Shown: positions 18,725 to 61,827, counted from the first letter of the stretch. The stretch: 64,000 bases of DNA from Patescibacteria group bacterium (GCA_038065355.1 JBBTRC010000010.1:157844-221843), one strand, 5' to 3'. Made by a program: numbers and translations. The notes: a model not told the origin generated them from the sequence alone.

Positions 18725-19264
18725 ATGGAAACAGTACAGACTCGCATGCAAAAAGCATTTGACGCACTCAAAGGCACTTTTGCGTATACAAACGTCAACC
18801 AAGTACCAAAGGTTGAGAAAATAATCGTATCGGTCGGCGTTGGCCGCGTCGAAGACAAAGCCAAGTTGGCACTGATCCAAGATCGTCTAGCGCGCATCAC
18901 CGGCCAAAAGCCGGCACCGCGTCCAGCCAAGCAATCAATTGCTTCGTTCAAGCTTCGTCAAGGCGACATCGTGGGCTACCAGGTGACCCTCCGCGGCGCT
19001 CGTATGCAGCATTTCTTGGATAAGCTCATTCACCTCGCCTTGCCGCAAACTCGCGACTTCCGCGGGCTCAAACTTTCGTCAATCGACGAGATGGGCAATT
19101 ACACCATGGGCATCAAGGAACATACCATTTTCCCAGAAACGGCTGACGAAGAAATTAAAGACGTGTTTGGCATGTCGATCACTATCGTGACGACCGCCAA
19201 AAACAAGACTGAATCAGAAGCCATTCTCCGCCACATTGGCTTGCCGCTACAAAAAGCTGAATAG
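18725..19264 (+). CDS. rplE: 50S ribosomal protein L5
   Basis: 179 aa L5 family. Confidence 0.95.
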   Translation: METVQTRMQKAFDALKGTFAYTNVNQVPKVEKIIVSVGVGRVEDKAKLALIQDRLARITGQKPAPRPAKQSIASFKLRQGDIVGYQVTLRGARMQHFLDKLIHLALPQTRDFRGLKLSSIDEMGNYTMGIKEHTIFPETADEEIKDVFGMSITIVTTAKNKTESEAILRHIGLPLQKAE

Positions 19265-19546: not shown

Positions 19547-19581
19547 CACAAAACCAGCGACATGTGTCGCTGGTTTTGTGT
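19547..19581. terminator. 16 bp perfect hairpin (one of several) in the rplE-downstream gap
   Basis: cacaaaaccagcgaca tg tgtcgctggttttgtg. Further hairpins lie at 19270-19300 and 19318-19352. This region separates the converging + ribosomal unit and the - block. Confidence 0.6.
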
Positions 19582-19637
19582 AAAAGAAAACGCGCGCAGC
19601 TGTGGCTACGCGCGAGATATCATAAACTCAAATGGTG

Positions 19638-20366
19638 TTAGAACTTGAGCTTCTCTAGGTCTTGGAGCAGGTTTTCGAAACTGACGACGACCGGCTGTCC
19701 AAGTGCATAGGCAATGAACTTTTGGTCAACGCCGAGTGCTTCGACTTCTGGACAGCCAGCCAACCTTCCGGCTAAAGCGGGAGGTTTGTCGCTTCCCGGG
19801 TCGGTATACCAGCTAATTAACTGCTTGTCCGCCTCCCGGCCAATTTGTCGGTGAAACACCAGCAAATTGTTCGTCACAGCTGTACGTTCGTCTGGTTCGA
19901 GTACTGAGCCGGCTCGACCAATAAGAAACAACCCTAAGTACTGTCGGCGCAGGTGGTCTTCGATAGTGCGTCCGTCAAATACTTTTTCGCCGAGGATTCG
20001 CACTCCTTCGGAGTCAGCAGTTTCTCGCAAGACGTTGTTTAAGTAGTCATCAAGATTAAAAACATTCGCTACCGTTTTCTGTGCTTGAGACGGCAGCGTC
20101 GCATAGGCCGCTTTAATTTCTTTGATCAACTTAATCAGGTTTGGCAAGTCGACAAATTCACCATGCGCTAATTTCCAGGCGGCGACTGTAAAACTGTTTT
20201 CTGAAAACCCGAATCGATCTTGCAGATGTTTAAGGTCAGTGCCGAGTTCAGTAAGTGTTTTCTTGAGATCAAGCTTATTCTTCATAAGACGCTCGACCAT
20301 AGACTGTAACGCTAAAGCGCCAACAAACATTGCACCGGCCCGTAACAGAGGATAGATCGCGATCAT
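19638..20366 (-). CDS. hypothetical protein with an N-terminal hydrophobic segment (last gene of the minus-strand block)
   Basis: 242 aa; no family recognised. Confidence 0.55.
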   Translation of the reverse strand: MIAIYPLLRAGAMFVGALALQSMVERLMKNKLDLKKTLTELGTDLKHLQDRFGFSENSFTVAAWKLAHGEFVDLPNLIKLIKEIKAAYATLPSQAQKTVANVFNLDDYLNNVLRETADSEGVRILGEKVFDGRTIEDHLRRQYLGLFLIGRAGSVLEPDERTAVTNNLLVFHRQIGREADKQLISWYTDPGSDKPPALAGRLAGCPEVEALGVDQKFIAYALGQPVVVSFENLLQDLEKLKF

Positions 20367-20502
20367 GCACGCTCCTTTGTAAAGATCACTTCCGTACCAG
20401 TAAACAAGTTTTTAGAATAAAAGCAAGTTTTGCACAATATAGAAAAACGGCTCGCCTGGTAGGCGAGCCGTGAGTTAAGAACAAAGTTGTTAAAACGAAA
20501 TA

Positions 20503-22158
20503 TCATTCCCAGGTGTTACCCAGTCTTGACTGTAGCTCAGTCGGCCAGGCTTTTGATTGCAAGGGATCTACCCAGACAACCACTCCAGTACGAGCGTCGG
20601 TGATAGCAATTTCTGGTGTAGCGCCAGTGATAAATTCCATCGCCCCGACCTCTGACTCGGTCTGTTTGACGGCTACGACGGTTGTCATCCAGAAAAGTCG
20701 CTCCGTCACTTCACCCTTTCGATTCGAAAATTTACGAATGAAGGGACGGTGTTCGACTGGTCGGAAGCGAGTCCAGTCGTAATTTTTCTTCGACTCTTCT
20801 ACTTTTGGTCCGACTGTACTTACGCCAATTAACTTCGTGCCCCGAGTCGAATGTTGGTATTGGTATATCAGCCTCGAACCGTCAGCCGGAATGAATAAAC
20901 TGGTCGCGAGACCTTGTTTCTCCGGATCAAATGGTTCAAGCGCAAAGTAAGCATAGAGAGCCCCTATTTTTTCACCAGGCATTTTGAAGTGCAAAGTGAA
21001 TGGTTGAGGGTTGACGTCGTCAGGCAAATTAGGAATGCGCACATCTCCACTATGCACGCCAGGGAGTGGTCCAGTGAAGCCTTCTTGGAAGCGAAAGCTT
21101 TCCGCAACGAAACGGGTTACCTGTGGTGCGACCAGATTTTGGCCGCGCAGAAAGGTGTGTTTCGAAACGTTGCGGGGAGAGACGTATTCCCCACACCCAA
21201 TTAATGGACGCAACAGTTCTGTCCAGTGGGGCCGCTTACCTTCTTGACGCACAATTTGGACACCACCAAACTCCGGTCGAGGAAAAAATAAACCGCTCCA
21301 TTTAATGAGTGAGACGACCTGTATCCATTCGCCGGTGTCATCCTGCATGTACAGAATGTTGCTGGGCTCATGGTTTAAAAATCGCCAAGGGCCAAACGAA
21401 CGCAGAGTGCACGAGTGAAGATTGTTGGAGAACAACATCTCTTCGCCAGTGCGAAACCGCACTCGGATTGGATTAGTTCGTGAGAAGTCAGGAGACGGCG
21501 ATGTAGCCGGTATACTCATGATTTCTCCGACGGATCCAGTCATACGGCCAACGAACCGTGCCGGCTGTACCGCTATTGTCCAGACGTCTCCGTGTTTGGT
21601 ATGTACCAAGTCAGGAACCGTCGGTCGTAATTGACTTTCGTCCATTCGTTCACGAATGAGTGAGTGTACGGCGTTAAGTGGCAGTACTCGCTCGTTCGCA
21701 GTTGTTGGAAGTAATCGCAGATCAACAATCTCAAGTGTTTGATACTGTTGAAAAGATGCAATGTACCGGTTGACTGGCTCTAGTCTTGCTAGTGCCACCG
21801 AAGTCAAAAGCAGACAAACGAATGTGGCAGTACCACGAACACGAATTGTCTGTTTCCGGGTCGTAAACCAAGTGATGCCGGTCAGCACCATCACGGTTAG
21901 GATGGCGCCGAAATAAATCCGAACGCCATGGATGAATGGTTGATATGCCCATCGTATATGCAGCAAGACAAGCGGCACTACGATGAGCATAGTCTTCGTC
22001 AGCCGTGGATGCTTCTTGAAAACCGATTTAATACTTACCAGTGTGTGGTGAATGAACCATCCCACCGGCGAGCGTTCCTTGCTTGCCTTTTTGGCGACAA
22101 CAGGAGCAATCGGTTTTTCAGTTTTACTCATGTCGATTTCCTCCAGTAAATCGCTCAA
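20503..22158 (-). CDS. hypothetical membrane protein: 3 N-terminal TM helices plus a ~400 aa extracytoplasmic domain
   Basis: 551 aa. It overlaps the upstream gene by 35 nt, indicating translational coupling. Confidence 0.6.
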   Translation of the reverse strand: MSDLLEEIDMSKTEKPIAPVVAKKASKERSPVGWFIHHTLVSIKSVFKKHPRLTKTMLIVVPLVLLHIRWAYQPFIHGVRIYFGAILTVMVLTGITWFTTRKQTIRVRGTATFVCLLLTSVALARLEPVNRYIASFQQYQTLEIVDLRLLPTTANERVLPLNAVHSLIRERMDESQLRPTVPDLVHTKHGDVWTIAVQPARFVGRMTGSVGEIMSIPATSPSPDFSRTNPIRVRFRTGEEMLFSNNLHSCTLRSFGPWRFLNHEPSNILYMQDDTGEWIQVVSLIKWSGLFFPRPEFGGVQIVRQEGKRPHWTELLRPLIGCGEYVSPRNVSKHTFLRGQNLVAPQVTRFVAESFRFQEGFTGPLPGVHSGDVRIPNLPDDVNPQPFTLHFKMPGEKIGALYAYFALEPFDPEKQGLATSLFIPADGSRLIYQYQHSTRGTKLIGVSTVGPKVEESKKNYDWTRFRPVEHRPFIRKFSNRKGEVTERLFWMTTVVAVKQTESEVGAMEFITGATPEIAITDARTGVVVWVDPLQSKAWPTELQSRLGNTWE

Positions 22159-22813
22159 GCACTGCTCGAGGATCTTTTTGCGGCTGTTCTGGTGCTGACT
22201 CCTCCGAAGTCGCCGACGGAGTAAGTGTCTCTAGCGGCTTGTTGACGACAGGTTCAGGGGGTGAGCTGGTAAGCGCTTCGCGAGCGTCACGCAACTTTTC
22301 CCCAACGGCGTCACCGATTTTTTCCGTAACGTCTTTGGCGACGGCACCGGCCGCATTAGCAGCTCCTCTCGCAACTTGACCAGCCATTTCGCCAGCTAGC
22401 TGCTTGAGGGTAATTTCCTTACTCTCGACTTTGTCGAGTCGAGTCGCAACCTTGTCGAGAAGGAAGTCACCGAGACGGATAAATGGCGTGACTAGATAGA
22501 ATCCAGCGACCATAAAACCCGCTTCAAGTGCCCACATGATTATCTCGACAGTGAAATCAACTTCTTCTGCCCGCCAAACTACGTACGCGCTCTGAACAAA
22601 CGAGATAATCGACGCAAACCATAGCTTGCGTCGAGCTGGTTGTCCCACAATAAAACCTCGTCGATCACTTAGTGGTAACGGGTCTTTGTGAGTCATTCGA
22701 TGCAGCCAGCGACGCGTAGGGACGCCAAATTTGGTGTCCGCCATTGCCCAAATAATTCCTAACAAAAGGAACATAATGAGCAAGCCAAGGGCCTTTGAGA
22801 AACTTATCTCCAT
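22124..22813 (-). CDS. hypothetical membrane protein: 3 TM helices plus a C-terminal amphipathic Ala/Gly/Lys-rich region
   Basis: 229 aa. It starts 3 nt after the upstream gene's stop. Confidence 0.6.
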   Translation of the reverse strand: MEISFSKALGLLIMFLLLGIIWAMADTKFGVPTRRWLHRMTHKDPLPLSDRRGFIVGQPARRKLWFASIISFVQSAYVVWRAEEVDFTVEIIMWALEAGFMVAGFYLVTPFIRLGDFLLDKVATRLDKVESKEITLKQLAGEMAGQVARGAANAAGAVAKDVTEKIGDAVGEKLRDAREALTSSPPEPVVNKPLETLTPSATSEESAPEQPQKDPRAVLERFTGGNRHE

Positions 22814-22815
22814 GT

Positions 22816-24084
22816 TTACTTCCTTTCGGTGTAGGTTTTATCTGAGTTGTAACCGACGATTTGCTTACGAGCGACTGCTCGCATTGGCTTACTCCAGGTT
22901 TGGTAGCGGTCAAGAAAAAGATTCTTATCAACCGCGTAGAGACGCATGACGTCAACTGGCCACGCTTGCACGTGACAAATTAATCGCCACACTAAGTTTT
23001 CTTCATGTCGGGTAGAAGTGTTCACTGGATGTAGCAAGCATGCTTGCACTTCCGATGAAACTGTCGGCAAAACTTGATCTTCGGTAATCTTGACAGCAAA
23101 TTCTTCGAGTTCAGCGTACACGTCCACGAATGGATGTTTACACCGACTCAAAGCACCTTTAGCATGTCCGTCGGTCATTGTGTCGACCGGTATTTCAGGG
23201 TCGACCGTTGACAAGATGAAGAGACCAAGTGTGGCTAGACGTTCTTGCAGAACGTGCGGGTGTGTTTGGTACCAACGCACGTCAATGTCGGCGACACCGC
23301 TTTCACGAATACGTGACACAACGTTTGGGTCGCGCACATGTGTTGTATAGGGTACCAATTCTGCACCGGCCTTATCTACCAACTTTTCGTTTTCAACAAC
23401 GATGAGTGCCCGCTGTCGTTGGTGCCTAAAGACGTAAACCCCTCCGAGCGCGGCGGTATAGAAGTCGTCGAACTCAGAAAATGTAAAGTCGTCGATCACC
23501 AGCTGGCGATCGTATAATTTTCCATTTTCGTTGAGGTCTTTTATTATCTTTTTTCGTAGTCCCGTGTCCATCCAAGCGTCTGTATCTTCACGCATGAATT
23601 CACCGACGAGTTGCTTTTGTTGAATTGCTTTATCAGCTAGTGTTCCAGCATGCGACACTATCTTAATAGTCCGAAGACTTTCGACGTGTGTCAGTTTCCG
23701 ATACCACGTGACACGTTGATCAATTTCAAGTGCAATGCCGGTTTCTGCTGTCAGGTTGGCAATTGCTTCCCGATTTTTCTCAAAGTATCGCTGCATCATC
23801 AATCGATCAAACGAGTGGGCCGGCATGTAAATTGGCTGGTTCTCTTGGTTGATAGTGACGATTATTCCGCGCGGATTTGCTAAACCGTGCGAAAGATAAT
23901 AGCGATTTTGAAACTCATCGGCAATTTCCGGCGACCAACCAATCCCATCGATGTGGAAATGGTCGAGCGTTGTCGGTGTTAAACCGAGCTGTTCCATGCA
24001 TACACGATATCGTTTGATTGTTTCTGGTCGGTCGATGAGAATGAGTCCACCGCCAACCAGCGCCGTTCTTGTAAGCTCCCTCAT
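22816..24084 (-). CDS. hypothetical soluble protein, 422 aa
   Basis: No recognisable motif. It is tightly linked to the downstream membrane-protein genes. Confidence 0.6.
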   Translation of the reverse strand: MRELTRTALVGGGLILIDRPETIKRYRVCMEQLGLTPTTLDHFHIDGIGWSPEIADEFQNRYYLSHGLANPRGIIVTINQENQPIYMPAHSFDRLMMQRYFEKNREAIANLTAETGIALEIDQRVTWYRKLTHVESLRTIKIVSHAGTLADKAIQQKQLVGEFMREDTDAWMDTGLRKKIIKDLNENGKLYDRQLVIDDFTFSEFDDFYTAALGGVYVFRHQRQRALIVVENEKLVDKAGAELVPYTTHVRDPNVVSRIRESGVADIDVRWYQTHPHVLQERLATLGLFILSTVDPEIPVDTMTDGHAKGALSRCKHPFVDVYAELEEFAVKITEDQVLPTVSSEVQACLLHPVNTSTRHEENLVWRLICHVQAWPVDVMRLYAVDKNLFLDRYQTWSKPMRAVARKQIVGYNSDKTYTERK

Positions 24085-24152
24085 TGTTCATCTCCGAGTT
24101 AAGGGGTTGTGGGTGGTAAGTCGGGTGGCCATTAGCCACCCGACTCAGATTT

Positions 24153-26108
24153 TCAGAGCTCAGTCTTTTCTTGCTTCAGTTCCGTATGCGCTTTTAACTG
24201 CACACGAATTCTTTTTTTCTCCGCCTCGACCTCTCGCCGAAACTGCTTTTCAGCAATGGTGGCAAAAGCGTCAAGGTAACGAGACGTCTCTTGCACCCAG
24301 ACGTCCTGCATCTTGAGGGTGCCCATGTTCTGGTGCATAAGGTCTTTAAGCATCGCACGTTTTTGCTCGTAGTCACGGCGGAAAAACACTTCTGGCTTTT
24401 CCATCCATTCGTCAGGCGGATCGAAATCCACCATTCGGGCTGACACAGCTGATTGAATGTTGCGAACTTCTCGGGACGAGAAGCCGTCAAATTCTTTCTG
24501 TACCGATGCCGCCAATACCGCGAAAAACTTAAACTCAGTCACGGCATGCTGTTTCAGAACTCGGTCAAAAATATCTCGCATTGTCGAATGCTTGGGAGCA
24601 TCGTAATGTTCGAGACTTTGTGACAGACTGACCAGCTCAGCTTGCAGCGACATGTATTCGTAGTCTGTTGGATCAGTCATGTTGGCAGTAAATTCTGGCA
24701 CAGCGTCCCGAAAATGCTTCCACCACAAGCGATCTTGGTCGAGGAAGTCTTCCCAGCGCCGCGCTCCGTTAATGGGAAAGCGAGCTTGGTGCCTTGAAAG
24801 TACGGCTGGATCAATCTGTTCCGGTAAGTTGGTGAAGGTCTCAATGACTGATGACCCCCGCTGTATATACACCGCACCAGCCCCTTCGGTGCCGGTTAAG
24901 AACTGGCTGATGACTTCACGAACGCCGGCCGATACCCCCTGCTGCATAGTTCGGTCTTGGAGTACTTGCTCGGCATCGTCAATCGCACCATACACGATCC
25001 GTTTTGGATCATTGAATTTTCTGAACCAGGCGTGCATCCGTTCGGCTGATCCACCTTGGTAGGTCGAGATGACCGTACCGCCAAGCGGATGATAGTCAAA
25101 AGGTATGCCAATCATGGTACAGATGTCATGGAACAAGGTAGCGGTCGCCGCAATTTGCAACGACTTACCAGTTCCGGGCACGCCGTGGCCGAGACGAACG
25201 TTTTGAAACGACCCAGTTAGTTCACGGAACGGATTCCGCTGCATAATCGGATCGTAACAACACACTCGAAACACCATCCGACGGGCTTCGTGTTTCGCTT
25301 CGCGGTTTCCGACGATGGTGTCGAATGAAGTGCGAGTAAACTCCACCTTCGCGCTTTCGTCCCGCGTTTCCGCGGTGAAGCCGTGAATAGTGAACTCACT
25401 GCCTTCTAGTTGGTATGAACGCTCGGTAAACGGTTCCGCAAACATGATCGTGCTCTGCACGCTCTTGATGTCTTCGAGAACTTTCTCAAAGTACACCCGC
25501 GTGAGTTTCACAAATGCTTCCGGAGTTTTTTCCGTTAATCGTTCGAGTGATTCAACGTAAAAGTAGATAAGCGAGCGGAGTGAACCAGCTCGGTTACTGT
25601 AGTCCAAACGAGGCATATCGAAATCAGGTACCGACACGCTGTTAACGGCGTCGGTGTGATACGTCGATAGTTCCCATAGGATGTAGTATGCTGCCACAAA
25701 ACGAGTGACATGCGCCATCGTCTGGTTTTTCTTGTAGAATTCTACGCGCTCAGCTTCGCTGCTGAACCCGCCACTTCTTGTCTGTTGATTGTTTAAGATC
25801 TCGAGACCGGAAGCGTTTTTGTAGAGTTCCGCGATGTGAGTCCCAAGTTCAACACCCTGCTTCACGATGTGGAGCGTGTGATTGACCTTGTCCGCTAGCA
25901 ATTTGGACTCAATCGGCCCGAATGTTCGGGCAACATCGAGTGCCTTTTTGGTAGCAGTAATGTCTCTGGTACTGCCGGCCGCGTAACCGCGGTCGGCAGT
26001 ACGATGCTGCACCACTTGATCAACATTTTCAAGTAGATCAAGGGCGGTGCGTCCGTATCGCTGCAGGTCACTACGGGTGACCTGCAGCGGCGCTTCGTTA
26101 GATTGCAT
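24153..26108 (-). CDS. AAA+ ATPase (classical AAA clade) with a ~300 aa N-terminal domain of unknown function
   Basis: Walker A GVPGTGKS, Walker-B-like IVYGAIDDAEQ, and a second region of homology (TNLPEQIDPAVLSRHQARF) that aligns to the FtsH/Vps4-type SRH. The start is taken as the ATG at 26108 (MQSNEAPLQ), which is preceded by GGAGGT and lies 5 nt after the upstream stop. The longer ORF-track start would overlap the upstream gene by 173 nt. Confidence 0.7.
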   Translation of the reverse strand: MQSNEAPLQVTRSDLQRYGRTALDLLENVDQVVQHRTADRGYAAGSTRDITATKKALDVARTFGPIESKLLADKVNHTLHIVKQGVELGTHIAELYKNASGLEILNNQQTRSGGFSSEAERVEFYKKNQTMAHVTRFVAAYYILWELSTYHTDAVNSVSVPDFDMPRLDYSNRAGSLRSLIYFYVESLERLTEKTPEAFVKLTRVYFEKVLEDIKSVQSTIMFAEPFTERSYQLEGSEFTIHGFTAETRDESAKVEFTRTSFDTIVGNREAKHEARRMVFRVCCYDPIMQRNPFRELTGSFQNVRLGHGVPGTGKSLQIAATATLFHDICTMIGIPFDYHPLGGTVISTYQGGSAERMHAWFRKFNDPKRIVYGAIDDAEQVLQDRTMQQGVSAGVREVISQFLTGTEGAGAVYIQRGSSVIETFTNLPEQIDPAVLSRHQARFPINGARRWEDFLDQDRLWWKHFRDAVPEFTANMTDPTDYEYMSLQAELVSLSQSLEHYDAPKHSTMRDIFDRVLKQHAVTEFKFFAVLAASVQKEFDGFSSREVRNIQSAVSARMVDFDPPDEWMEKPEVFFRRDYEQKRAMLKDLMHQNMGTLKMQDVWVQETSRYLDAFATIAEKQFRREVEAEKKRIRVQLKAHTELKQEKTEL

Positions 26109-27243
26109 TAACGTAACCTCCGTTGGTATAAGTGATCTTGCGATCAGGGGTTGAAAGAAGTGCTTGAACGCGTTCTCCTTTTTCAGAGTGAGCAATTTGT
26201 GCCAATCGATGAGGCAGTAGCATAAAGCCTTGGCTGTATGTTGCTCCTCGCTCGATGGCGCGCTCGTCATTGCTGGTAAGGTCGAAGAGCTCGTATCGTT
26301 GTTTTTTTCCTAGTAAGGGTATGCCTGGCCCCACGGTTTTTTTTGACTGAACTTCGTCAAAGGAAAACCGCAACACCACATCCCCATCTTCAGCGAGTTC
26401 GGAGAAGAAAAAGTTAGCCGCCAACTCTTCTGGAGTAGGTGACTCATTTAGTCGAATGAGACGCTTCGTGAACAAACGATCGAGCATAATCTTCGTTAAC
26501 CGTTTGGGGTGAATGTAGGGAAGCGACCGATCGATGTCGTGCGCCACCAGGCTCACCGAAGGTGTGCGATGGCCGACCCGACGTATCACTTGCAATAAAG
26601 CGGCGAACGCCGGGCCTTTTTCATGCATTGGGTCAATTGCCTCGTGTACATCTTGAGTAAACTCAAGGATGTACACTGCCGGGCAATGGTCGTTTGATGA
26701 GTAACACGACCACCAGAACGTATACCTGCGTTCGTGGTGTTTCTTATCGCGTGGTGCGACGTCGTGATGACGAAGCTCACCGTTCACGACTGGTAGAGTC
26801 ATGTAACGTTGATCCAAAAGATCAAGATAGCGTCGCTCGCCAATTCGCCACAGTAAATCGGAGTCGTCGCCGCCCGTTTTAAGCGCTTGGTCCAGCCAAA
26901 CTTGCTTGTGAATTCGCGAATCTACCAACTGACGTTGGTGTTCATCGCGACTGATTAGATCGATCATTGTTCCTTCAATCTCTGAATGGTTGGGAAATCC
27001 ATTTAACCCAATACTGAGTGCTTCACCGGTAAGTGAGGCGTGGGTAAACGCATACTTCAGGTGCAACGCTGCGCCCGTGTAGGCTAGTCGCGCTGCGGTG
27101 TTCTTAAGAGCATTTTCTATCATCGTTCGCTCCGGATGACCGGGGATCAAGAGATCCGCCAGCTTCGGAAGAAGCGTTGAAATTGTCGAAAATGTCTTAA
27201 AGTACTCGTTGTACGTCGATCCAGTGTCGGATACATCTGACAT
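26098..27243 (-). CDS. hypothetical protein, 381 aa
   Basis: No recognisable domain. It is immediately upstream of, and probably coupled to, the AAA+ gene. Confidence 0.55.
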   Translation of the reverse strand: MSDVSDTGSTYNEYFKTFSTISTLLPKLADLLIPGHPERTMIENALKNTAARLAYTGAALHLKYAFTHASLTGEALSIGLNGFPNHSEIEGTMIDLISRDEHQRQLVDSRIHKQVWLDQALKTGGDDSDLLWRIGERRYLDLLDQRYMTLPVVNGELRHHDVAPRDKKHHERRYTFWWSCYSSNDHCPAVYILEFTQDVHEAIDPMHEKGPAFAALLQVIRRVGHRTPSVSLVAHDIDRSLPYIHPKRLTKIMLDRLFTKRLIRLNESPTPEELAANFFFSELAEDGDVVLRFSFDEVQSKKTVGPGIPLLGKKQRYELFDLTSNDERAIERGATYSQGFMLLPHRLAQIAHSEKGERVQALLSTPDRKITYTNGGYVNAI

Positions 27244-27261
27244 GGTCGATCTCCTTTCGAA

Positions 27262-27300
27262 GTTGTTGCAAGCTCAAAAATGGGGGTCATCGCAATGCAA
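27262..27300 (-). terminator. terminator after the coiled-coil gene (minus strand)
   Basis: The minus strand reads gggggtcat cgcaatgca atgacccccattttt. Confidence 0.65.
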
Positions 27301-27322
27301 TGACCCCCAGGGTGGCCTCGAA

Positions 27323-28693
27323 TTAGAGCGAAAACTCTTTGATCGAAGCCGATGAGCCAGAGCCGTCTGTTGGTGAGCCGCCGCTTTTTGCAAAAAAGCG
27401 ATCTCGCCAGTCTTTGATCATCTGCGCGTCTTCTTGTTCGATGTAGCGAAGTTCGCTGTCGAGCTTCAACGCGATCTCTCTTTGTGCGCGCATCACGGCC
27501 GGATGTTGTTTTCCGTACGTAATACGAGCTCGCTCAACGGCGTTATACACGTCGGCTGCTCCTCGGGCAGCATCGATGCTGTCCTGTCGAGACACTGAGT
27601 TAAGTTCGTTCTGTACGTTGAGGTCAGAAAGACCTTTAATCAGTTCGACACGAATGGCGGTGATTTCTCGGTTGAGTTTCGCCGCCGCTGTGCCGATACG
27701 CACCGACCGCTCATAGTTGCCGCGGAGGGTCGTGAGACCATCGCGCTGCATGATGAGCGTCTGCATTTTTTCTTCGAGCTCTTGGGCCTCACCCATCGCC
27801 GCGTCCATTTTGGCTTTGAGTTGACCCTTTTTCTCTCGAGCGTCGTCGATTTGCTGTTGGAGTTCAGTGTACGCCGGAGTATTCCGCTCGAGCGCACCCT
27901 CGTCCATCTGTGCTTGAAGGCGAGTAACTTGGGCTTCCTGCTTCTGGAAGTCGATTTGTGCCTGCGCGTGCTCGTCGACAGCCATCTTGTGACGCTTTGA
28001 AGTTGCAGCCAAGACGGTCTTTCGACGTTCGAGCGATTTGGTAGCCATTTCGACTCGTTCACGCAGAACAGTGTTTGCTCGTTCATGCATAGCTCGAATG
28101 GCAGTGCTCGACTCCTCCATGGTGGCGTTTTGCAGAATTTCGCGCTGCCGCCGATCGGCTTTCGCCGGAGCGTCTTTTATCGCTTGTTCTGCAGATGCCA
28201 GTTTATTTTTTGCCGCAGACAGAGCACCCGCCGCTTCGTCAACTGCACCCTTGCCCCACGCAAAGAAAAGGAAACGACCTTGCTTTGACTCGGCGACCTT
28301 AAGGTCGGCGGTGGCAGCGGTGACCGCAGTTTGGGCATTTTTGCCTTCCACGTCGGCGTCGTCAATTATCTTCCGTGCGTCAGGATGCATAGTTTCCAGG
28401 TTCGCAATATCCGATCCTTGCTGCTTTGCGAGCTCGTGTAGAGCAACGGCCAGGTCAGCCAGGTCTTTTGAATCCTGAATTTCGTCAGCCATGACTTCTT
28501 CGATGGTGCGACGAATGTCGCGAACAGGAATATCCTTGGCCGTGATCTTGCCGCTTTCTTCCAGGGCTCGATCAAGGCGCGTCTCAAGTTCGACGAAGGG
28601 GTCTTTAATGTTTAGGCGGTTTTCGGCCCGAGACAGGGCTTTTGAAGCCTCTTGTTCAAGGGTTTTACCGTCTAAAGAGAACTCTTCAGGCAT
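27323..28693 (-). CDS. long coiled-coil protein, 456 aa
   Basis: Extensive heptad-repeat character, Q/E/A/K/R-rich (QKQEAQVTRLQAQMDEG...KKGQLKAKMDAAMGEAQELEEKMQTL), with an AAGGA SD-like element 9 nt upstream. It is the first gene of the minus-strand block. Confidence 0.6.
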   Translation of the reverse strand: MPEEFSLDGKTLEQEASKALSRAENRLNIKDPFVELETRLDRALEESGKITAKDIPVRDIRRTIEEVMADEIQDSKDLADLAVALHELAKQQGSDIANLETMHPDARKIIDDADVEGKNAQTAVTAATADLKVAESKQGRFLFFAWGKGAVDEAAGALSAAKNKLASAEQAIKDAPAKADRRQREILQNATMEESSTAIRAMHERANTVLRERVEMATKSLERRKTVLAATSKRHKMAVDEHAQAQIDFQKQEAQVTRLQAQMDEGALERNTPAYTELQQQIDDAREKKGQLKAKMDAAMGEAQELEEKMQTLIMQRDGLTTLRGNYERSVRIGTAAAKLNREITAIRVELIKGLSDLNVQNELNSVSRQDSIDAARGAADVYNAVERARITYGKQHPAVMRAQREIALKLDSELRYIEQEDAQMIKDWRDRFFAKSGGSPTDGSGSSASIKEFSL

Positions 28694-29020
28694 GTCATTG
28701 TCCTTTCTCTAGGTTGATTGTTTTAGAATGATATTTCGTTGTCAACGAACAGCCGAAATACCTACTAAGATATGACGGTTCGCTACCCACATGTATATAC
28801 CATTTTTAGTGTATTGTCAAGTTTTTGTAGCCTTTGGTATAGCTATAGATTGCTATTTTTGGGCTTTCTGGTATTGTAGCGGGCACGACGAACTTGGAGA
28901 TTCTAACTAGAAAACCCAGTCGTTGAAGGCGAGTTTTGGCGGCAGCCAATACGAGCCGGATTTATAAGGAAACACGTCACCAATTCTAGGTGATACGGTT
29001 TCATCACCTAACCAACATAC

Positions 29021-29206
29021 GTGGCACGAAAATCATTGATTTTGCGTTCAGTGCGCAAACCAAAGTTTAAATCGCGTGTCGTCCGCCGTTGCAAGCTTTG
29101 CGCTCGCCGCCGCGGCTACATGCGTGACTTCGACATGTGCCGAATTTGCTTCCGCGAACTCGCACACGAAGGTCAGATACCAGGCGTAAAAAAATCATCA
29201 TGGTAG
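29021..29206 (+). CDS. rpsZ: 30S ribosomal protein S14 type Z (Zn-ribbon short form)
   Basis: 61 aa with a GTG start and the CxxC...CxxC motif ([40 protein letters not shown]). A hairpin (taggtgat acggtttc atcaccta) lies at 28987-29012 just upstream. Confidence 0.92.
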
Positions 29207-31761: not shown

Positions 31762-33033
31762 ATGCAGACATTTTTCCAGAAGCTAAAAATCATTGCCACC
31801 GAACCAACTATTCGTAAGCGATTACTGTTCGTACTCGGCGCACTTATCGTTTTCCGTGTGTTGGCCGCCGTGCCAATTCCGGGCGTTGACCAGACCGTGC
31901 TCGATCAATTCTTCACCAATAACCAATTCCTCGGCCTCTTGAACATTTTCTCGGGTGGCGGTCTCGCCAACCTTTCAATCGTGATGCTCGGTGTTGGTCC
32001 GTTTATTACGGCATCCATCATCATGCAGCTCTTGACGGTGATGTCGCCGGCGCTCAAAAGCATGTACACCGAAGAAGGCGAAGCTGGGCGAGCAAAATTT
32101 ACCCAGTGGAGTCGTATGCTCACCCTGCCTCTCTCTATCCTTCAAGGCTTCGGCTTCCTTACCCTGCTCCAGAGTCAAGGCGTCATCACTCACCTGACGG
32201 TGTTTGATTTTGCCCTCAACGTGGTTTTGATTGTGGGTGGCTCGATGCTCCTCATGTGGATCGGCGAACTCGTCACTGAATACGGAATTGGAAACGGAGT
32301 GTCGATTATTATCTTCGCCGGTATCGTCGCGAGCTTGCCGGCCACTATGAGCCAACTGCTCTTTTCCTACGACCCTTCTCAGTTGCCGCTCTTTCTCGGG
32401 TTTGCACTGGTGGCGCTCGCGATTGTGTACGCGGTAGTCATTATGACCGAAGCCGAACGGCCGGTGCCGATTACTTACGCTAAGCAGAGCCGCGGTGGTC
32501 ATACCTACGGAGGCAGTTCATCGTACTTGCCGCTTCGTCTCAACCAAGCCGGCGTGATCCCCATCATTTTTGCCCTCTCGATCATTCTGTTCCCACAGAT
32601 GGTGCTGAACATTCTTTCGGCCTTTAGCTTGCCGTGGGTGGCGGGTGCAAATGAGGTGGTGACGCAATTTCTAAATAACCAAACCGCCTACGGCATCGTG
32701 TATTTCGTGTTTGTGTTTCTCTTCACCTTCTTCTATACTGCGGTGACGTTTGACCCAGATGCGATATCAAAGAACTTACAGCGAAATGGCGCCTTCATTC
32801 CGGGCATTCGTCCCGGCGGACACACTGCCGAGTATCTCGGCAACCTCGTCACCAAGCTCACTTTGGCCGGCGCGCTCTTCCTGGGGCTGATTGCGGTGGC
32901 GCCGGTTGTGATGCAAATCCTCACCGGTGTCACAGCGCTCGCCATCGGCGGAACGGCGGTACTCATTGTGGTGTCGGTCGTGCTCGATTTGATCCGCCGC
33001 CTTGATGCACAAATTTCGCTTCGCGAATACTAA
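31762..33033 (+). CDS. secY: preprotein translocase subunit SecY
   Basis: The start is taken at ATG 31762 (MQTFFQKLKIIATEP). 10 TM, SecY family. Confidence 0.93.
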   Translation: MQTFFQKLKIIATEPTIRKRLLFVLGALIVFRVLAAVPIPGVDQTVLDQFFTNNQFLGLLNIFSGGGLANLSIVMLGVGPFITASIIMQLLTVMSPALKSMYTEEGEAGRAKFTQWSRMLTLPLSILQGFGFLTLLQSQGVITHLTVFDFALNVVLIVGGSMLLMWIGELVTEYGIGNGVSIIIFAGIVASLPATMSQLLFSYDPSQLPLFLGFALVALAIVYAVVIMTEAERPVPITYAKQSRGGHTYGGSSSYLPLRLNQAGVIPIIFALSIILFPQMVLNILSAFSLPWVAGANEVVTQFLNNQTAYGIVYFVFVFLFTFFYTAVTFDPDAISKNLQRNGAFIPGIRPGGHTAEYLGNLVTKLTLAGALFLGLIAVAPVVMQILTGVTALAIGGTAVLIVVSVVLDLIRRLDAQISLREY

Positions 33034-33062
33034 AACGCTTCTATATACTTCGGCAATTATGT

Positions 33063-33098
33063 ACAAAAAACCAACCCCAGAGGTTGGTTTTTTGTATG
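33063..33098. terminator. bidirectional terminator after secY
   Basis: aaaaaaccaacc ccagag ggttggttttttg. Confidence 0.8.
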
Positions 33099-33111
33099 CG
33101 CGTGTTAAAGA

Positions 33112-33837
33112 TTAAATACGTAGGGGATTGAAGTCTGTACCAATATCATAAGTGTCGATCCCTTCTCTTTCTTTGACAGCTTTTATAACTTTTCTTGTCA
33201 CTGGCAAAGCGGCAACTTCCCACAAAGTACAGAAAGTTACTGTAGAGACAATGAGCGGTACAAGTTCCGAAGGAGCAAACCAACCAGCAAAGTAGAAAGC
33301 GGTAAAGAAAGCGATAGTGTTGTCAACAAGTTGCCCAAACAATGTCGACACAACTAAACGTACATTCAAAAGTTTTTCTTTCGTTATTAGTTTCATTTTT
33401 GCCACAATATACGAGTTTGTCAGTTCACCACAGAAAAAAGCGACAATAAAACCAATCGCTACAATCGGTGACGCTCTAAAAATGGCGTTATATGCATCAT
33501 TCATTTCGAACGATGGATTAGGTACGATGCTGTATAGAAACGCTAAGCTAGACGCCAAAAACATACACGCAAACCCTGTCCAGACGATTTTTCTTGTCAC
33601 TCGATAACCATAGACTTCAGTAAAAATGTCGGCAAAAATATAGACAAATGGATAGGCAATCGCTCCCACTGAAAATACCCAGGTTCCAATATAAAATGTT
33701 TTAAGAGATGTAAACACTCCAACAATCAGTACTGTTACCCAAAGCATGGCAAATACGAGCAAGTACTTATGAGGAAGCACCGCCGTTTCTGCCGGATTCG
33801 TGATTAAGTTGTTTTTCATACGCGACGATACTAGCAA
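33112..33837 (-). CDS. queuosine-precursor (VUT/YhhQ, DUF165) family transporter
   Basis: 241 aa polytopic protein with YhhQ-like motifs (AYPFVYIFADIFTEVYGY). AT-rich relative to the flanks. The start is possibly the internal Met at 33819. Confidence 0.65.
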   Translation of the reverse strand: MLVSSRMKNNLITNPAETAVLPHKYLLVFAMLWVTVLIVGVFTSLKTFYIGTWVFSVGAIAYPFVYIFADIFTEVYGYRVTRKIVWTGFACMFLASSLAFLYSIVPNPSFEMNDAYNAIFRASPIVAIGFIVAFFCGELTNSYIVAKMKLITKEKLLNVRLVVSTLFGQLVDNTIAFFTAFYFAGWFAPSELVPLIVSTVTFCTLWEVAALPVTRKVIKAVKEREGIDTYDIGTDFNPLRI

Positions 33838-33902
33838 AAACTACTTGACCAAATCCAAGAAAGTAGTACATTTAAGTTAATTTTAAACTTAAAGTTTAAA
33901 AT

Positions 33903-34709
33903 ATGTCTAAACGAAATGTAGAGAATACGATAATACAACTCCTTGGCAACGGGAGTTTAGAAAAACAAATATTAATTGACCGGGTTGTTAAACAGTCTCA
34001 CGTGACCATTCAGGCTGTGTATAAAAACCTGCGCAAACTTACGGTGAGGGACAGTATTACAATCCATAAAAAGTCAGTTAGTCTCACGTTGTTACACATT
34101 GAAAGAGAATTACAGTATTGGGAAACTGTCTCAGGGGTCTATCACACACGGCCGCTTGCGAGCCACTTTCTCGGCTTGCGTGAAGGCGATTCACTTAGTT
34201 TACGATTTAAAAATCTGAACGAACTTGATACGTATTGGGTACATGCTTTTTTACTCTTAGAAAGACAGCTACCTAAAAACTTTCCTACGTACTCTGTCAT
34301 TCCCCACGACTGGTTCTACTATGGTCGTCGGGAGACTGATGTTTTTTGGACACAAAAACAAAAACGTAAACAACGACTCATAGTGACCCATCCTGACAAA
34401 ATTGACATGTTGGCGCTTCGCGAACGAAGGAAACAAGGTTATGAAATGACACCCAGTGTAAATCCTCTCCACCAGGAGGAGCACGAGTATTTCACAGTCG
34501 TTAGCGACTGGGTATTTAAGGTGACTATTGATAAAAAGTTACATGCAGATTTACTACGAATAACACAACAAGCACGGGCACTCGAAAATATTGATCAAGT
34601 TTCTTTACAAAAATTACTTTCCAAGCGTGGTCAAAACACCATGAAGATATACAAGAGTAAAAAACGTGCTGATGTAATAATTAAAAAAGTGCAGAAGTAC
34701 TTTGAATAG
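33903..34709 (+). CDS. hypothetical protein with a probable N-terminal winged-HTH
   Basis: 268 aa from an AT-rich region (~38% GC); no family recognised. Confidence 0.5.
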   Translation: MSKRNVENTIIQLLGNGSLEKQILIDRVVKQSHVTIQAVYKNLRKLTVRDSITIHKKSVSLTLLHIERELQYWETVSGVYHTRPLASHFLGLREGDSLSLRFKNLNELDTYWVHAFLLLERQLPKNFPTYSVIPHDWFYYGRRETDVFWTQKQKRKQRLIVTHPDKIDMLALRERRKQGYEMTPSVNPLHQEEHEYFTVVSDWVFKVTIDKKLHADLLRITQQARALENIDQVSLQKLLSKRGQNTMKIYKSKKRADVIIKKVQKYFE

Positions 34710-34729
34710 GCTATACCGCTCACCTTTGG

Positions 34730-35362
34730 TTAGTACTGATTCTTGAATGAGTACCCCATCGGGACGGCGCTGTGTCGTTGTTGCCACACATCAAGCTCAA
34801 GCCATTCTTTGTAGTTATCAAATACTGTAATGGCGACTGTTTGCGGGTCGTGCCGCGAGGTGTCGATGATGAGGTCAAAATGCTCGGTGTTGAACGGGTC
34901 GACGCCATAGACAGATTTGAAACGATTGCGCTCGGTATTCATGCGGTCCCGTACTTCGATGGCGACGGCGTCGAGGGAGTTGTTTTTTGATTCAGTGGCA
35001 CCGCGACTTTTGTTGTGTATAAGGTCTTTAAAGACGCGCGCGGTCGCGATCTCGAGGTCGAGATCGAGGTACACTTTGAACGATTCAGGTATCCAATAAA
35101 AACCCAGTCGAGAGTCAATCACAATATCCTTGTGGTCTCGAAGGGTGCGCAGTTCTTCATCCACTTTGTCATCGAGGTTGTGATCGAGAGCGGCAAGCCG
35201 GTTGTACTCTTCAAGTGTCATATGCTTTTTGGCCAGCACGTGCCTGACCACGTCGCCGGACGAGTGCCTTGTGTAGCCGAGGAGTTCGGCGACTCGATCG
35301 GCGGTCGAGGATTTGCCACTGCCGGGTTTGCCGGAGACGGTAATAATGTGCTTGCGTTTCAT
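34730..35362 (-). CDS. P-loop nucleoside monophosphate kinase, cytidylate-kinase-like family
   Basis: The start is taken at MKRKHIITVSGKPGSGKSST (Walker A). The ORF-track start is extended upstream. Confidence 0.6.
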   Translation of the reverse strand: MKRKHIITVSGKPGSGKSSTADRVAELLGYTRHSSGDVVRHVLAKKHMTLEEYNRLAALDHNLDDKVDEELRTLRDHKDIVIDSRLGFYWIPESFKVYLDLDLEIATARVFKDLIHNKSRGATESKNNSLDAVAIEVRDRMNTERNRFKSVYGVDPFNTEHFDLIIDTSRHDPQTVAITVFDNYKEWLELDVWQQRHSAVPMGYSFKNQY

Positions 35363-55268: not shown

Positions 55269-56351
55269 TTAGTGCAGAATCGTCAAAAGCGGATCAAAAC
55301 GGAATAGTTTGTTTCTGCTCCTGTTTCCAATTTCGAATACATAACCTTTTTTTTCCAGGCTTCGAATCAGGTTTGTTGCGGTTAGGTAGCTCGCACATTT
55401 CGTGTGTTCCTGGACCATTTTGATAGTGAAGATGGGAGAGATGAATAGCATATCAATGAACGGAATAATATAGGGTGACTTTACACCATTGTAGGCTCGC
55501 CGAATGTCGTAGTATAGCTCGTAAATAGCTTCGATAATTTTTTGAGTCTCGTTAAGTTGCCCAGATACAGATTGTAGAAAGAATTTAAGCCACTCCTCAA
55601 TGTCGTTTCCTTCGTCGATCGCATGTAACTTATCAATGTACTCATCTCGATGGTCCTCAAAGTATCCACTTAAATAAAGTATAGGAGAAGACAGGCGTTG
55701 TTGTTTGTGTAACACGAGAGGAATAAGCAGTCGACCTATACGACCGTTACCATCGTCAAAGGGGTGTACAGCCTCAAACTGGTAATGAGTTATACCCGCT
55801 TTGAGGAGGGCGTTTTCTTTCCCGTTATTTATGTAATCGAAAAGATTATTTATCAAACCGCGCACGTGTATGGGTTCAGGTGGGATGTAAATCGCTTTTT
55901 CAATAGAGTCTCCAGCTCTTTCTGCAATCCATACTTGCCCCTCCCTAAATTTACCCAAGAGTCCTTTATGACGTACATCCTCAAGCAGAACGCTGTGTAG
56001 GCTCTCTATTAGGTGACTAGTAACATCTCTACTTTTTCCAATTTCTCTCATCGCGAGACTCATGGCACGACGATAATTCACTACCTCACGAATGTCCGCG
56101 TGCTTAGTTTGTTCACCAGCGTCAAACATGAAAACATCTGCAACGTCACTTTGTGTGCCTTCAATCTTTGAACTCATGACAGCTTCTTTTGCTGTAAGGG
56201 GAGATATCAAAAGGTCCGGATTCTGTAACTTCTTCTGAGATCCCTCAAGCAGTCCAAGAGCGTACTCAGCAGTTGAAAGTTCGTTAGCAAACTTGTTGTA
56301 GTCAAGAGTAAGACCTTCGGTGTCAAGAGGCTTTATTTGGGCCGGTTTTTT
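55269..56351 (-). CDS. Fic/DOC-family protein (AMPylation-type)
   Basis: Fic motif HPFDDGNGRIGR. The start is taken at MKKPAQIKPL. AT-rich. Confidence 0.85.
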   Translation of the reverse strand, partial: KKPAQIKPLDTEGLTLDYNKFANELSTAEYALGLLEGSQKKLQNPDLLISPLTAKEAVMSSKIEGTQSDVADVFMFDAGEQTKHADIREVVNYRRAMSLAMREIGKSRDVTSHLIESLHSVLLEDVRHKGLLGKFREGQVWIAERAGDSIEKAIYIPPEPIHVRGLINNLFDYINNGKENALLKAGITHYQFEAVHPFDDGNGRIGRLLIPLVLHKQQRLSSPILYLSGYFEDHRDEYIDKLHAIDEGNDIEEWLKFFLQSVSGQLNETQKIIEAIYELYYDIRRAYNGVKSPYIIPFIDMLFISPIFTIKMVQEHTKCASYLTATNLIRSLEKKGYVFEIGNRSRNKLFRFDPLLTILH

Positions 56352-56437
56352 CATAAGAATAAGTGTATTCCTTGTATATAAGAATGTCAAGTTTCTTATA
56401 TACAACTCAGTTTTAGTTATAACAGCTTATAGGTGAG

Positions 56438-56896
56438 CTAAAGCGTCTTCCATCCTAGCTCATATTTTCCCGCAGGGTTCATTTCTAATTCATCAAATAA
56501 GTAAAATTTCTGGACAACTATTTTGTACCAACGATGGCCGTCTTCCTCTGACTGTTCTTCCAGAATTGAAGCATCACTATTAAATCTTTGATTGTAAGTT
56601 TGAAACGCTACTTGATCTTTTGTCACGTTATGTAACATTTCAATTAAGCCTTCAAAATAGACGCCCCGTACTGATTCGTCTTTCTTGTGTTGTCTGACTA
56701 TATTTCCCGCAATTTGGTTGTTTTGGCTTACTTCAACACTGTGACGGCGATTGGGTCGTGACACAAAGTAGAAGTTTAATTCGTCATCGTAAGAATAGTG
56801 AACTTCCGAAATCCAGGGTTTATTTTCATGGGATGTCGCAATAGACATGTGAACTATGTCTTCTAAATAGTTACGAATTATTGCCTCAACTTTCAT
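56438..56896 (-). CDS. pyridoxamine-5'-phosphate-oxidase-like FMN-binding split-barrel protein
   Basis: 152 aa, weak family resemblance (MSIATSHENKPWISEVHYSYDD). Confidence 0.45.
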   Translation of the reverse strand: MKVEAIIRNYLEDIVHMSIATSHENKPWISEVHYSYDDELNFYFVSRPNRRHSVEVSQNNQIAGNIVRQHKKDESVRGVYFEGLIEMLHNVTKDQVAFQTYNQRFNSDASILEEQSEEDGHRWYKIVVQKFYLFDELEMNPAGKYELGWKTL

Positions 56897-56991
56897 TGAT
56901 AGAGTATAGCAAAATAAAAGTCAGTTTCGAACATTCTTCAGGCTCTCAAAAATACGCAAAAGGAGCGTCGTAGAATAAAACTTGTTAGTAG

Positions 56992-57072
56992 GGAGCAGTT
57001 TTCTTCGAGTCAAAATCGATTTGATTCAAATTGAGCGCGCGTCATTTTTTGAAGCCTGTCGATTTGTAGTAG
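56992..57072 (+). repeat. intergenic ~80 bp repeat, copy A
   Basis: Matches the consensus GGAGCAGTTTTCT..AG..AAAA...TTTGATTGAAATGGA.......GAATTTTTTGAAG....GTGGATTTGTGGTAG shared with copies B-E. Confidence 0.85.
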
Positions 57073-57097
57073 TCGGAATAAGTTATAATTGTGTCTT

Positions 57098-57973: not shown

Positions 57974-57984
57974 TTTTGCTCCGT

Positions 57985-58064
57985 GGAGCAGTTTTCTTCA
58001 AGTAAAAATTTCTTTAATTGAAATGGAATGTCCGAATTTTTTGAAAATTGCTGACTTGTAGTAA
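57985..58064 (+). repeat. intergenic ~80 bp repeat, copy B
   Basis: Same family and same orientation as copy A. Confidence 0.85.
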
Positions 58065-61354: not shown

Positions 61355-61434
61355 GTGTCTGAGTATACCAAAAACATAAAAGCTTACCCTCACGAGTAAA
61401 CTTTCATGTTGTTCCATAGACTTCTATCTTTATG

Positions 61435-61827
61435 TGGAGATGGCGGGAATTGAACCCGCGTCCGAGTCAGGGTGCGATTATGAGTCTACAGTGCGTAGTT
61501 GATCCTTTAGTTTAAAGGTGGTGGCTAGAGGAAAAACAAAACACCACTACCTCGAGTTGTTACAAGCTCGGAAAACCTACGACAACGGCAGAGGTTTCCA
61601 CAGTCTCATGGCTATTCTACGAGACACACCGTACGAGACCCTTGGTGTGTTCGCATCGCTCCGGCGGCGTAAAATTTACGCGAATGCGGGAGCGAATCCA
61701 AACGCGCGAGCGTAAGGACTTGGTACTGCTTTGTTTGCAGATACAGGTGGAACCTTTTAACGAATTGGTTGCCATTTTCGACACTGCACACAACCGACAC
61801 GACTAACCGTCGATGCCTAGCATCCCC
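61435..61827 (-). ncRNA. ssrA: tmRNA (transfer-messenger RNA)
   Basis: The minus strand begins with the 5' end GGGGAUGCUAGGCAUCGACGG (conserved UCGACGG). The 3' tRNA-like end is GGACGCGGGUUCAAUUCCCGCCAUCUCCA: a T-arm GCGGG/UUCAAUU/CCCGC and an acceptor 3' strand CAUCUCC pairing with the 5' GGGGAUG, including G3:U70. CCA is not encoded. The internal reading frame GCA AAC AAA ... GCG UAA gives the tag ANKAVPSPYARAFGFAPAFA. Confidence 0.85.

Follow-up and report, generated by a model that had tools for sequence, protein, structure and literature searches.

ATPases of the AAA+ class that remodel coiled-coil substrates in concert with membrane anchors, e.g., Vps4, NSF, Cdc48, and Pex1/6, are central in eukaryotes and archaea. 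SNAREs are coiled-coil substrates of this kind, and Pex15/Pex26 recruit their ATPase through the cytosolic part of a membrane protein. To our knowledge, clear bacterial examples of such remodelers are few. Several bacterial contexts that combine PspA or Snf7 proteins with AAA+ ATPases have been described (PMC11237479), none with the gene composition reported here. We analyzed a stretch of 64,000 nucleotides (hereafter the window) from a Patescibacteria group bacterium (GCA_038065355.1, JBBTRC010000010.1:157844-221843), in which the spc ribosomal protein operon is interrupted between rplE and rpsZ by seven minus-strand genes, G1–G7 (positions 19,638–28,693 of the window). Six of these make up a cassette encoding a coiled-coil protein (G1), an AAA+ ATPase (G3) with two further soluble proteins (G2 and G4), and two membrane proteins (G5 and G6). 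Judging from its gene order and divergence, this cassette is, close to certainly, one functional unit inherited colinearly across several phyla. We tentatively interpret it as an operon that was acquired horizontally, is complete in itself, and encodes a membrane-associated AAA+ machine not described before, an interpretation that we hold to be a serious possibility, somewhat short of probable.

The distribution of the cassette was evaluated by scanning one genome per GTDB species with a peptide pattern for DUF6638, the family of G4, which yielded 390 loci; the best 80 of these 390 were kept and searched with single sequences, then with family profiles. G1-G2-G3-G4-G5-G6 occurred in that order and on one strand at 56 of the 80 loci, all 56 complete loci being colinear, and most incomplete loci were truncated by contig ends. 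The G1 family was found at 62/80 loci and the G2 family at 64/80, G2 always between G1 and G3. Complete cassettes are hosted by many classes of Patescibacteria as well as by Bacteroidota, Desulfobacterota, and Gammaproteobacteria, and the cultured Bacteroidota carrying one include Tenacibaculum, Polaribacter, Winogradskyella, Gelidibacter, Lacinutrix, and Aquaticitalea, while Trueperaceae and Bdellovibrionota-like loci hold core genes without G5 and G6. Overall, the shared order extends over no fewer than six bacterial phyla. The flanks differ by lineage and are mostly housekeeping genes. Pairwise distances of the six families were correlated (r = 0.84–0.95, 57 loci), and G3 and G6 retained 35–45% identity across phyla. 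An earlier preliminary description of this DNA, made from its sequence, had proposed an ATP-driven, membrane-associated unit, and the conserved order and strand at 56/80 loci, the correlated distances, and the intact motifs of G3 bear this out. It had, however, counted all seven genes as one block: since G1–G6 are colinear elsewhere while G7 lacks a homologue (0/80 loci), the conserved unit consists of six genes.

All seven open reading frames (ORFs) between rplE and rpsZ were confirmed on the minus strand at the coordinates first described, each with a Shine-Dalgarno-like site upstream. Details of their spacing were corrected. The G4/G5 gap is 2 nt; G6 starts at ATG 22131 and overlaps G5 by 8 nt, the previous figure of 35 nt stemming from an upstream TTG; and the G3 start, which gene calls and an upstream GGAGGT place at ATG 26108, overlaps the G2 stop by 11 nt. 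A 705-aa version of the G3 ORF is accordingly too long, and 651 aa are supported. We counted the translational coupling among the cassette genes, together with their Shine-Dalgarno sites, in favor of a single machine.

G3 (24153–26108, minus strand) encodes what its sequence suggests to be a new single-domain ATPase of the AAA+ classical clade. The AAA domain (residues 308–444 of 651) matches PF00004 (E = 1.9e-8, 35 bits for a cut-off of 21.2), as do 46/46 members of the G3 family. It is preceded by an N-domain of ~260 aa, i.e., shorter than the ~300 aa estimated before the start was set at 26108, and followed by a lid that contains an insertion and by a helical extension at the C-terminus; neither the N-domain nor the extension matched any family. 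Across the 46 sequences, the Walker A residues G309, G312, G314, and K315 (GxPGTGKS), the Q and G of the pore loop [FY]350-Q351-G352, sensor-1 N427, and the arginine finger R439 are invariant, and a second arginine finger, R443, is present in 45/46. The alignment shows G3 to keep the residues expected of an active, substrate-threading classical AAA+ hexamer, in line with the clade assignment initially made. When the family profile was searched against solved structures, the closest relatives were Cdc48/VAT/AFG2 (~5e-15), NSF (1.6e-10), and Vps4 (7.5e-9), followed by Rpt4 (2.8e-8). In a test on sequence only, none of the 46 G3 proteins matched MIT, CDC48_N, or Vps4_C (MIT and Vps4_C at E ≤ 0.1). 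G2, G4, and the N-domain of G3 were also compared pairwise as possible mutual paralogues, and this relationship was rejected.

Among the soluble partners, G4 (22816–24084, minus strand, 422 aa) is the signature gene of the cassette. No protein of the block had initially been assigned to a named family beyond the ATPase, which does not hold for G4, a full-length DUF6638 protein (PF20343; E = 1.9e-36, 126.3 bits for a cut-off of 27) whose residues 12–417 match profile positions 3–402 of 439 and which carries an invariant GWSPEIAxE loop. DUF6638 is rare: in a set of 1.84 billion representatives its profile finds only 562 clusters (50% identity), every one of them single-domain and ~420 aa long, and the family is not mentioned in the literature searched. 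Across Pfam, NCBIfam, PADLOC, and PHROGs, AAA and DUF6638 were the only matches for the seven proteins. G2 (26098–27243, minus strand) encodes a soluble 381-aa protein of an unnamed family, with no Pfam, NCBIfam, or PDB match for either the single sequence or a 43-sequence profile. Likewise, neither the single sequences nor the family profiles of G1, G2, G4, and G6 matched anything but generic coiled coils when searched against PDB sequences.

G1 (27323–28693, minus strand), supported by its ORF and Shine-Dalgarno site, encodes a 456-aa cytoplasmic coiled-coil protein of a family ranging from 430 to 530 aa. Its members share a conserved N-terminal peptide of [DE]xFDLL type and, after a low-complexity linker, an acidic extreme C-terminus of DL[LM] type (or xTF/FSL); in the window these correspond to EEFSLD and KEFSL, respectively. 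Matches in the PDB and NCBIfam were of the generic coiled-coil type, and no consistent Pfam family emerged from 40 G1 members. Two specific relationships were rejected: alignment of the G1 profile to Escherichia coli PspA, using an approximate PspA sequence, gave 2.7% probability (hhalign), and TelA (PF05816) was matched by none of the 40 members in Pfam and reached 0.09% probability when the TelA encoded at locus L168 was used (hhalign).

These data bear directly on the first hypothesis put forward for the locus, an ESCRT-III/Vps4-like membrane-remodeling pair. In a true bacterial ESCRT-III/Vps4 or PspA-type system, G1 would be a divergent ESCRT-III or PspA protein and G3 a Vps4 orthologue. 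Neighborhoods with PspA or Snf7 beside an AAA+ ATPase are known from bacteria (PMC11237479), and the G3 profile does match Vps4 (7.5e-9). However, Cdc48/AFG2/VAT are better-scoring matches of G3 than Vps4 is, and MIT and Vps4_C matches are lacking throughout (0/46), while at E ≤ 0.1 Snf7 (PF03357) and PspA_IM30 (PF04012) were matched by 0/40 G1 proteins, with the approximate PspA alignment at 2.7% pointing the same way. The length of the G1 proteins, 430–530 aa compared to ~220–260 aa for ESCRT-III proteins, argues against simple membership as well. We thus consider an ESCRT-III/Vps4 or PspA-type identity highly improbable.

The two membrane proteins are both predicted to span the membrane three times. 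G5 (22124–22813, minus strand, 229 aa) has its N-terminus outside and three transmembrane segments based on positive-inside counts (33/35 members), and its alignment reveals two features on the cytoplasmic side, a basic loop that is conserved and a disordered tail that closes with a conserved C-terminal peptide of DDWRxGVxxFLxK type (DPRAVLERFTGG in the window). G6 (20503–22131, minus strand, 542 aa) has its N-terminus inside, three transmembrane segments, and a large extracytoplasmic domain of ~420 aa, again from positive-inside counts across the family. This topology, which agrees with the one originally proposed for both proteins, is consistent with a confident AlphaFold2 model (predicted local distance difference test score, pLDDT, of 92.9). 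The G6 ectodomain is beta-rich with many invariant residues, including polar and aromatic ones, and G6 is second in conservation, behind G3. No family was matched by G5 (Pfam, NCBIfam, PADLOC, PHROGs) or G6. The predicted topologies show that a conserved loop and tail peptide of G5 face the cytoplasm, while a large, highly conserved domain of G6 is exposed outside the cell. The AlphaFold2 model of G4 is also confident (pLDDT 89), and no PDB neighbor was found for the models of G4 and G6, each of which would apparently represent a new fold.

Variation among loci sets the membrane proteins apart from the rest of the cassette. A DUF2333 (PF10095) membrane protein lies directly downstream of G4, replacing G5/G6, in L017, L026, L031, L033, L084, and Sinorhizobium meliloti (L087), and in L017, L026, L084, and L087 it accompanies a G1–G4 core; a G1–G4 core without a recognizable membrane partner was observed on an 882-kb plasmid of Vibrio parahaemolyticus (L086) and in Trueperaceae. 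These alignments and gene contexts show a soluble four-gene core, G1–G4, pairing with an exchangeable membrane module: G5 and G6, DUF2333, or none. A relationship between G6 and DUF2333 was rejected (hhalign probability 0.85%). In S. meliloti, the G3 homologue may be SMc02733, a tentative mapping based on the gene order cho-tdk-...-shmR-trpE. SMc02733 has been listed with a ChvI-bound fragment (PMC3687685). The cassette also receives inserted genes at single loci, i.e., an AbiEii-like AAA_21 ATPase and an HNH protein between G4 and G5 in an Electrothrix metagenome-assembled genome (L076, 11985–14712), and an endonuclease and ISRm16 transposase between G3 and G4 in S. meliloti (L087, 7060–8805).

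Another insertion concerns the possibility that the cassette serves envelope biogenesis or export. G6 or DUF2333 would then serve a surface polymer or structure outside the cytoplasm, as an enzyme or as an assembly factor, and would itself be delivered, energized, or regulated by the cytoplasmic AAA+ core. In ~10 Flavobacteriaceae species (L063, L067–L069, L071, L073, L074, and L078–L080), a Nudix protein of the NudK/YffH type, i.e., an NDP-sugar/ADP-ribose pyrophosphatase type, is encoded between G3 and G4, matching NudK at E = 4e-65, just below the equivalog cut-off. A Nudix gene also adjoins duf2333 in Pseudomonas fluorescens, an adjacency merely noted in the only paper on DUF2333 in the literature searched (PMC5256989). 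Together with the invariant polar and aromatic residues of the G6 ectodomain, the rank of G6 as second most conserved protein, and a weak likeness between G6 and beta-propeller glycosidases at the 3Di level, this would fit an enzymatic role outside the cell. Yet only one family has the Nudix insertion, which therefore counts as a single event, the cassette has no conserved glycosyltransferase, flippase, or transporter, and variants without a membrane partner exist, such that we regard a dedicated biogenesis or export system as improbable.

Neighboring genes point in a different direction at the loci L168 and L169 (1–20166, NCBI label ‘Acinetobacter sp.’), where the cassette has dnaK-dnaJ on one side and, on the other, clustered TelA, DUF4178, DUF2617, DUF350, and 7TM-spermine-synthase genes; dnaK-dnaJ adjoin the cassette in L007 too. 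Clusters with TelA, DUF4178, DUF350, and 7TM-spermine-synthase genes have been tied to PSP-like stress (PMC11237479), and the layout of the cassette is parallel to that of the Psp system, in which PspA is the coiled coil, PspF the AAA+ protein, and PspB/C the small membrane proteins. G1–G6 might accordingly act in Psp-like sensing of envelope stress, the G6 or DUF2333 ectodomain sensing damage and G5 relaying it so that a G1–G4 complex is released or activated and protects the membrane. But the stress context is restricted to one or two related lineages, and as a general context of the cassette it was rejected, none of the L168 stress genes recurring at the other 79 loci. Moreover, G3 is not an NtrC-type enhancer-binding ATPase and has no DNA-binding domain, and G1 is neither PspA- nor TelA-like. 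We give this sensing scheme little credence.

The placement inside the spc operon had been noted as unusual in itself, and it is real. rplE (Ribosomal_L5, 18725–19264, plus strand) precedes the block, and a zinc-type S14 ORF, rpsZ (29021–29206, plus strand), follows it, with S8, L6, L18, S5, L15, and SecY further downstream in order; Pfam-labelled gene calls on the source contig give the same layout. The order of rplE and block was assembled independently three times (NCBI GCA_964357995, ENA Hainich H41, and Logan ERR3858121), which rules out mis-assembly, and one of the three, the NCBI assembly (L081), additionally spans the S8–SecY side. Elsewhere, gene order within the cassette is kept across phyla, but its ribosomal position is not: ribosomal genes lie within 10 kb at 0/80 other cassette loci, and among 80 metagenomic relatives identified by uL5 (58–83% identity; loci L088–L167), the cassette was found at rplE|rpsZ in none. 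The distance from rplE to rpsZ in these relatives ranges from 68 bp to 8.5 kb. Where both genes were visible (51 relatives), the gap was <300 bp in 13 and 0.36–8.5 kb in the rest, and in 3 further contigs nusG-rplK came after rplE. Metabolic genes were among the contents of the gaps, as were a HigB-like toxin, an IS481-type transposase, and an NgoFVII-type restriction enzyme paired with a C5 methylase fused to LexA. Because these gaps vary in size and content, we interpret the rplE|rpsZ junction as a lineage-specific hotspot for accessory DNA, of which the cassette is one cargo. On this comparison, the odd position reflects insertion into a variable junction and indicates no ribosomal function, and the otherwise rigid spc operon harbors an insertion hotspot in one Patescibacteria lineage.

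Composition is in keeping with an acquired element. The G+C content at third codon positions of the cassette genes is 0.47–0.56 compared to a mean of 0.58 for the other genes of the window, and the tetranucleotide distance of the cassette is ~1.8 standard deviations above typical windows, both deviations being compatible with an older transfer. No recombinase or transposase was detected among the seven window proteins (Pfam, NCBIfam), no tRNA at the borders, and no RNA family in the block (Rfam). Taken together, the rarity of the DUF6638 family, the deviant composition, the absence from this site in 80 relatives, and the non-ribosomal surroundings elsewhere argue that the cassette is accessory and was transferred.

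An accessory, transferred cassette could be an anti-phage or conflict module, as had been suggested at the outset, in which a soluble AAA+ core senses infection and triggers a membrane effector (G5/G6 or DUF2333) or aborts infection. Such a role would suit the patchy, transferred-looking distribution of a small family, its exchangeable membrane modules, the restriction-modification pair, HigB-like toxin, and IS481-type transposase at the same junction in relatives, and the defence-like genes within the cassette itself in L076 (AbiEii-like ATPase and HNH) and S. meliloti (endonuclease and insertion sequence). Direct support was lacking, however. No protein matched PADLOC-DB v2 below E = 0.01, G1 giving weak coiled-coil matches to JetC (E of at least 0.017) and G2–G7 none; Pfam and NCBIfam revealed no nuclease, protease, NADase, or toxin domain; and around loci with at least 5 core genes, at most 3 of 141 immediate neighbors matched any defence model, most being housekeeping genes, so that a general location in defence islands was rejected. 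Phage records and IMG/VR yielded no relative of G4 or G6. Furthermore, 35–45% identity of G3 and G6 across phyla is unusually conservative for defence genes, and the large conserved G6 ectodomain is unlike typical pore-forming effectors. A conflict module is therefore quite unlikely.

Our best reading remains that of a membrane-tethered AAA+ remodeler acting on the coiled-coil protein G1, which we infer tentatively and would call plausible without calling it probable. Specifically, a G3 hexamer, for which G2 and G4 would act as cofactors or adaptors, would dock at the inner face of the membrane via the tail and loop of G5, a role that DUF2333 would take in other lineages. There, G3 would spend ATP to assemble, disassemble, or extract G1 assemblies, the short conserved terminal peptides of G1 serving as recognition handles, and the state of the G6 domain outside the cytoplasm would thereby be coupled to a cytoplasmic G1 scaffold. 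The physiological role is likely to lie in accessory maintenance of the envelope or membrane and not in core metabolism. By analogy, an ESCRT/NSF-like mode of action would be the most economical model, although ESCRT homology fails.

Several observations weigh against such a remodeler. The Walker B region of G3 (24975–24986; residues 375–378) reads D377-D378-A-E380, and the position of the catalytic Glu is occupied by Asp in 45/46 sequences and by Glu in one. This Asp-type Walker B resembles that of the NSF-D2 ring, which hydrolyzes slowly. From these residues, ATP binding is expected of G3, its hydrolysis rate is uncertain, and by the same analogy the protein could serve as a scaffold that depends on nucleotide instead of working as a motor. 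The choice of G1 as substrate is a guess drawn from operon position, coiled-coil character, and terminal motifs. In addition, the G6 ectodomain is so highly conserved as to suggest a specific biochemical activity, which the model leaves unexplained, and the G1–G4 variants without a partner indicate that the membrane is not strictly needed by the core.

Transcription signals were evaluated next to the gene borders. Upstream of G1 lies a sigma-70-like promoter match, TTGACA-17-AACAAT (28717–28745, minus strand), which is a consensus match only, in a region where promoter-like sites as a whole are no commoner than in shuffled sequence. A terminator-like hairpin directly after G6 (20447–20471, minus strand) would end the transcription unit of the cassette, with an analogous hairpin 3′ of G6 in L085, L168, and L169. 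Another, between G1 and G2 (27281–27309, minus strand), is a possible attenuator, not conserved at other loci, and may yield G1 in excess over G2–G6. G7 (19638–20366, minus strand) is followed by two terminator-like hairpins (19547–19614). Given the hairpins after G1, G6, and G7 and the promoter-like site, G1–G6 look like one transcription unit and G7 like another.

The same borders carry a perfect inverted repeat of two 15-nt arms that brackets exactly G1–G6 and excludes G7. Its right arm, GAATGATATTTCGTT (28726–28740), is located 33–47 nt upstream of the G1 ATG in the spacer of the promoter-like site, and its left arm, AACGAAATATCATTC (20494–20508), overlaps the last codon and stop of G6. 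It is the sole such repeat in the region, where shuffled sequences give an expectation of 0.04, and its core, GAAT-N3-ATTC, is quasi-palindromic. The closest cassettes (L085, L168, and L169; 52–56% protein identity) carry, at both corresponding sites, a related repeat whose core is AATATCATTC. Border repeats as a general cassette property were rejected, as nothing beyond chance was found in 50 other loci. The repeat possibly represents operator sites, pairing of the 5′ and 3′ ends of the RNA, or terminal repeats of a transferred unit.

G7 itself encodes a 242-aa protein with a hydrophobic N-terminus, co-oriented with the cassette and preceded by its own Shine-Dalgarno site. A search of 5.8e9 protein clusters returned only the protein itself, and comparison with L085, the closest cassette, rejected a relationship to the gene that follows its G6. 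G7 is an orphan and a separate unit outside the conserved system. Elsewhere in the window, a tmRNA gene (61432–61827, minus strand) was identified by Rfam (RF00023, 100 bits), with the tag peptide ANKAVPSPYARAFGFAPAFA given by ARAGORN, and two stretches (33001–35000 and 56001–58000) display a GC content of 0.38–0.43 compared to ~0.50–0.55 in the rest of the window, which may mark further acquired segments.

The cassette offers a compact and conserved candidate that occurs in Patescibacteria with reduced genomes and also in bacteria that can be cultivated and are accessible to genetics, such as the marine Flavobacteriaceae Tenacibaculum, Polaribacter, and Winogradskyella, with S. meliloti available for the DUF2333 variant, so that the hypothesis of a membrane-tethered remodeler is directly testable. 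DUF6638, a Pfam family without described function, gains a fixed functional context of six genes, and two of the proteins are confidently modeled without a solved structural neighbor.

Overall, the proposed machine would share its logic with Vps4/ESCRT-III, NSF/SNARE, and Pex1-Pex6/Pex15, with no homology beyond the AAA fold. As in Vps4/ESCRT-III and the archaeal CdvC/CdvB, a classical AAA+ ATPase is encoded beside a coiled-coil protein whose terminal peptide follows a flexible linker, and action close to the membrane is envisaged; but G1 has no Snf7 or PspA match and is ~2× longer than ESCRT-III proteins, MIT and Vps4_C were detected in none of the 46 G3 proteins, and the four conserved partners G2, G4, G5, and G6 have no ESCRT counterpart. 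Cdc48/p97/VAT, AFG2, NSF, and Pex1-Pex6 provide the best matches to the AAA core of G3 (5e-15 to 1e-10) and likewise combine an N-domain with dedicated cofactors, whereas G3 contains a single AAA domain in place of the D1-D2 tandem, an unassigned N-domain without a CDC48_N match, a D-D-A-E Walker B, and unrelated partners. With PspA-PspF-PspB/C, the cassette shares a coiled-coil protein, an AAA+ ATPase, and small membrane proteins at one locus, and the logic of envelope maintenance; PspF, however, is a sigma-54 enhancer-binding AAA+ protein with a helix-turn-helix, while G3 belongs to the classical clade and has none, G1 falls outside PspA/IM30, and homology to PspB or PspC is absent. DUF2333 proteins, absent from the window, are membrane-anchored with a large non-cytoplasmic-looking domain like that of G6, to which they are not homologous. 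There is a real, though less than even, chance that G1–G6 define a new class of bacterial AAA+ machine, in which a single-ring Cdc48/NSF-like ATPase and two partners of new fold (DUF6638 and G6) would remodel a dedicated coiled-coil scaffold and transmit force or information across the cytoplasmic membrane. If true, this would be an independently evolved bacterial analogue of the AAA+/coiled-coil membrane machines of eukaryotes and archaea.

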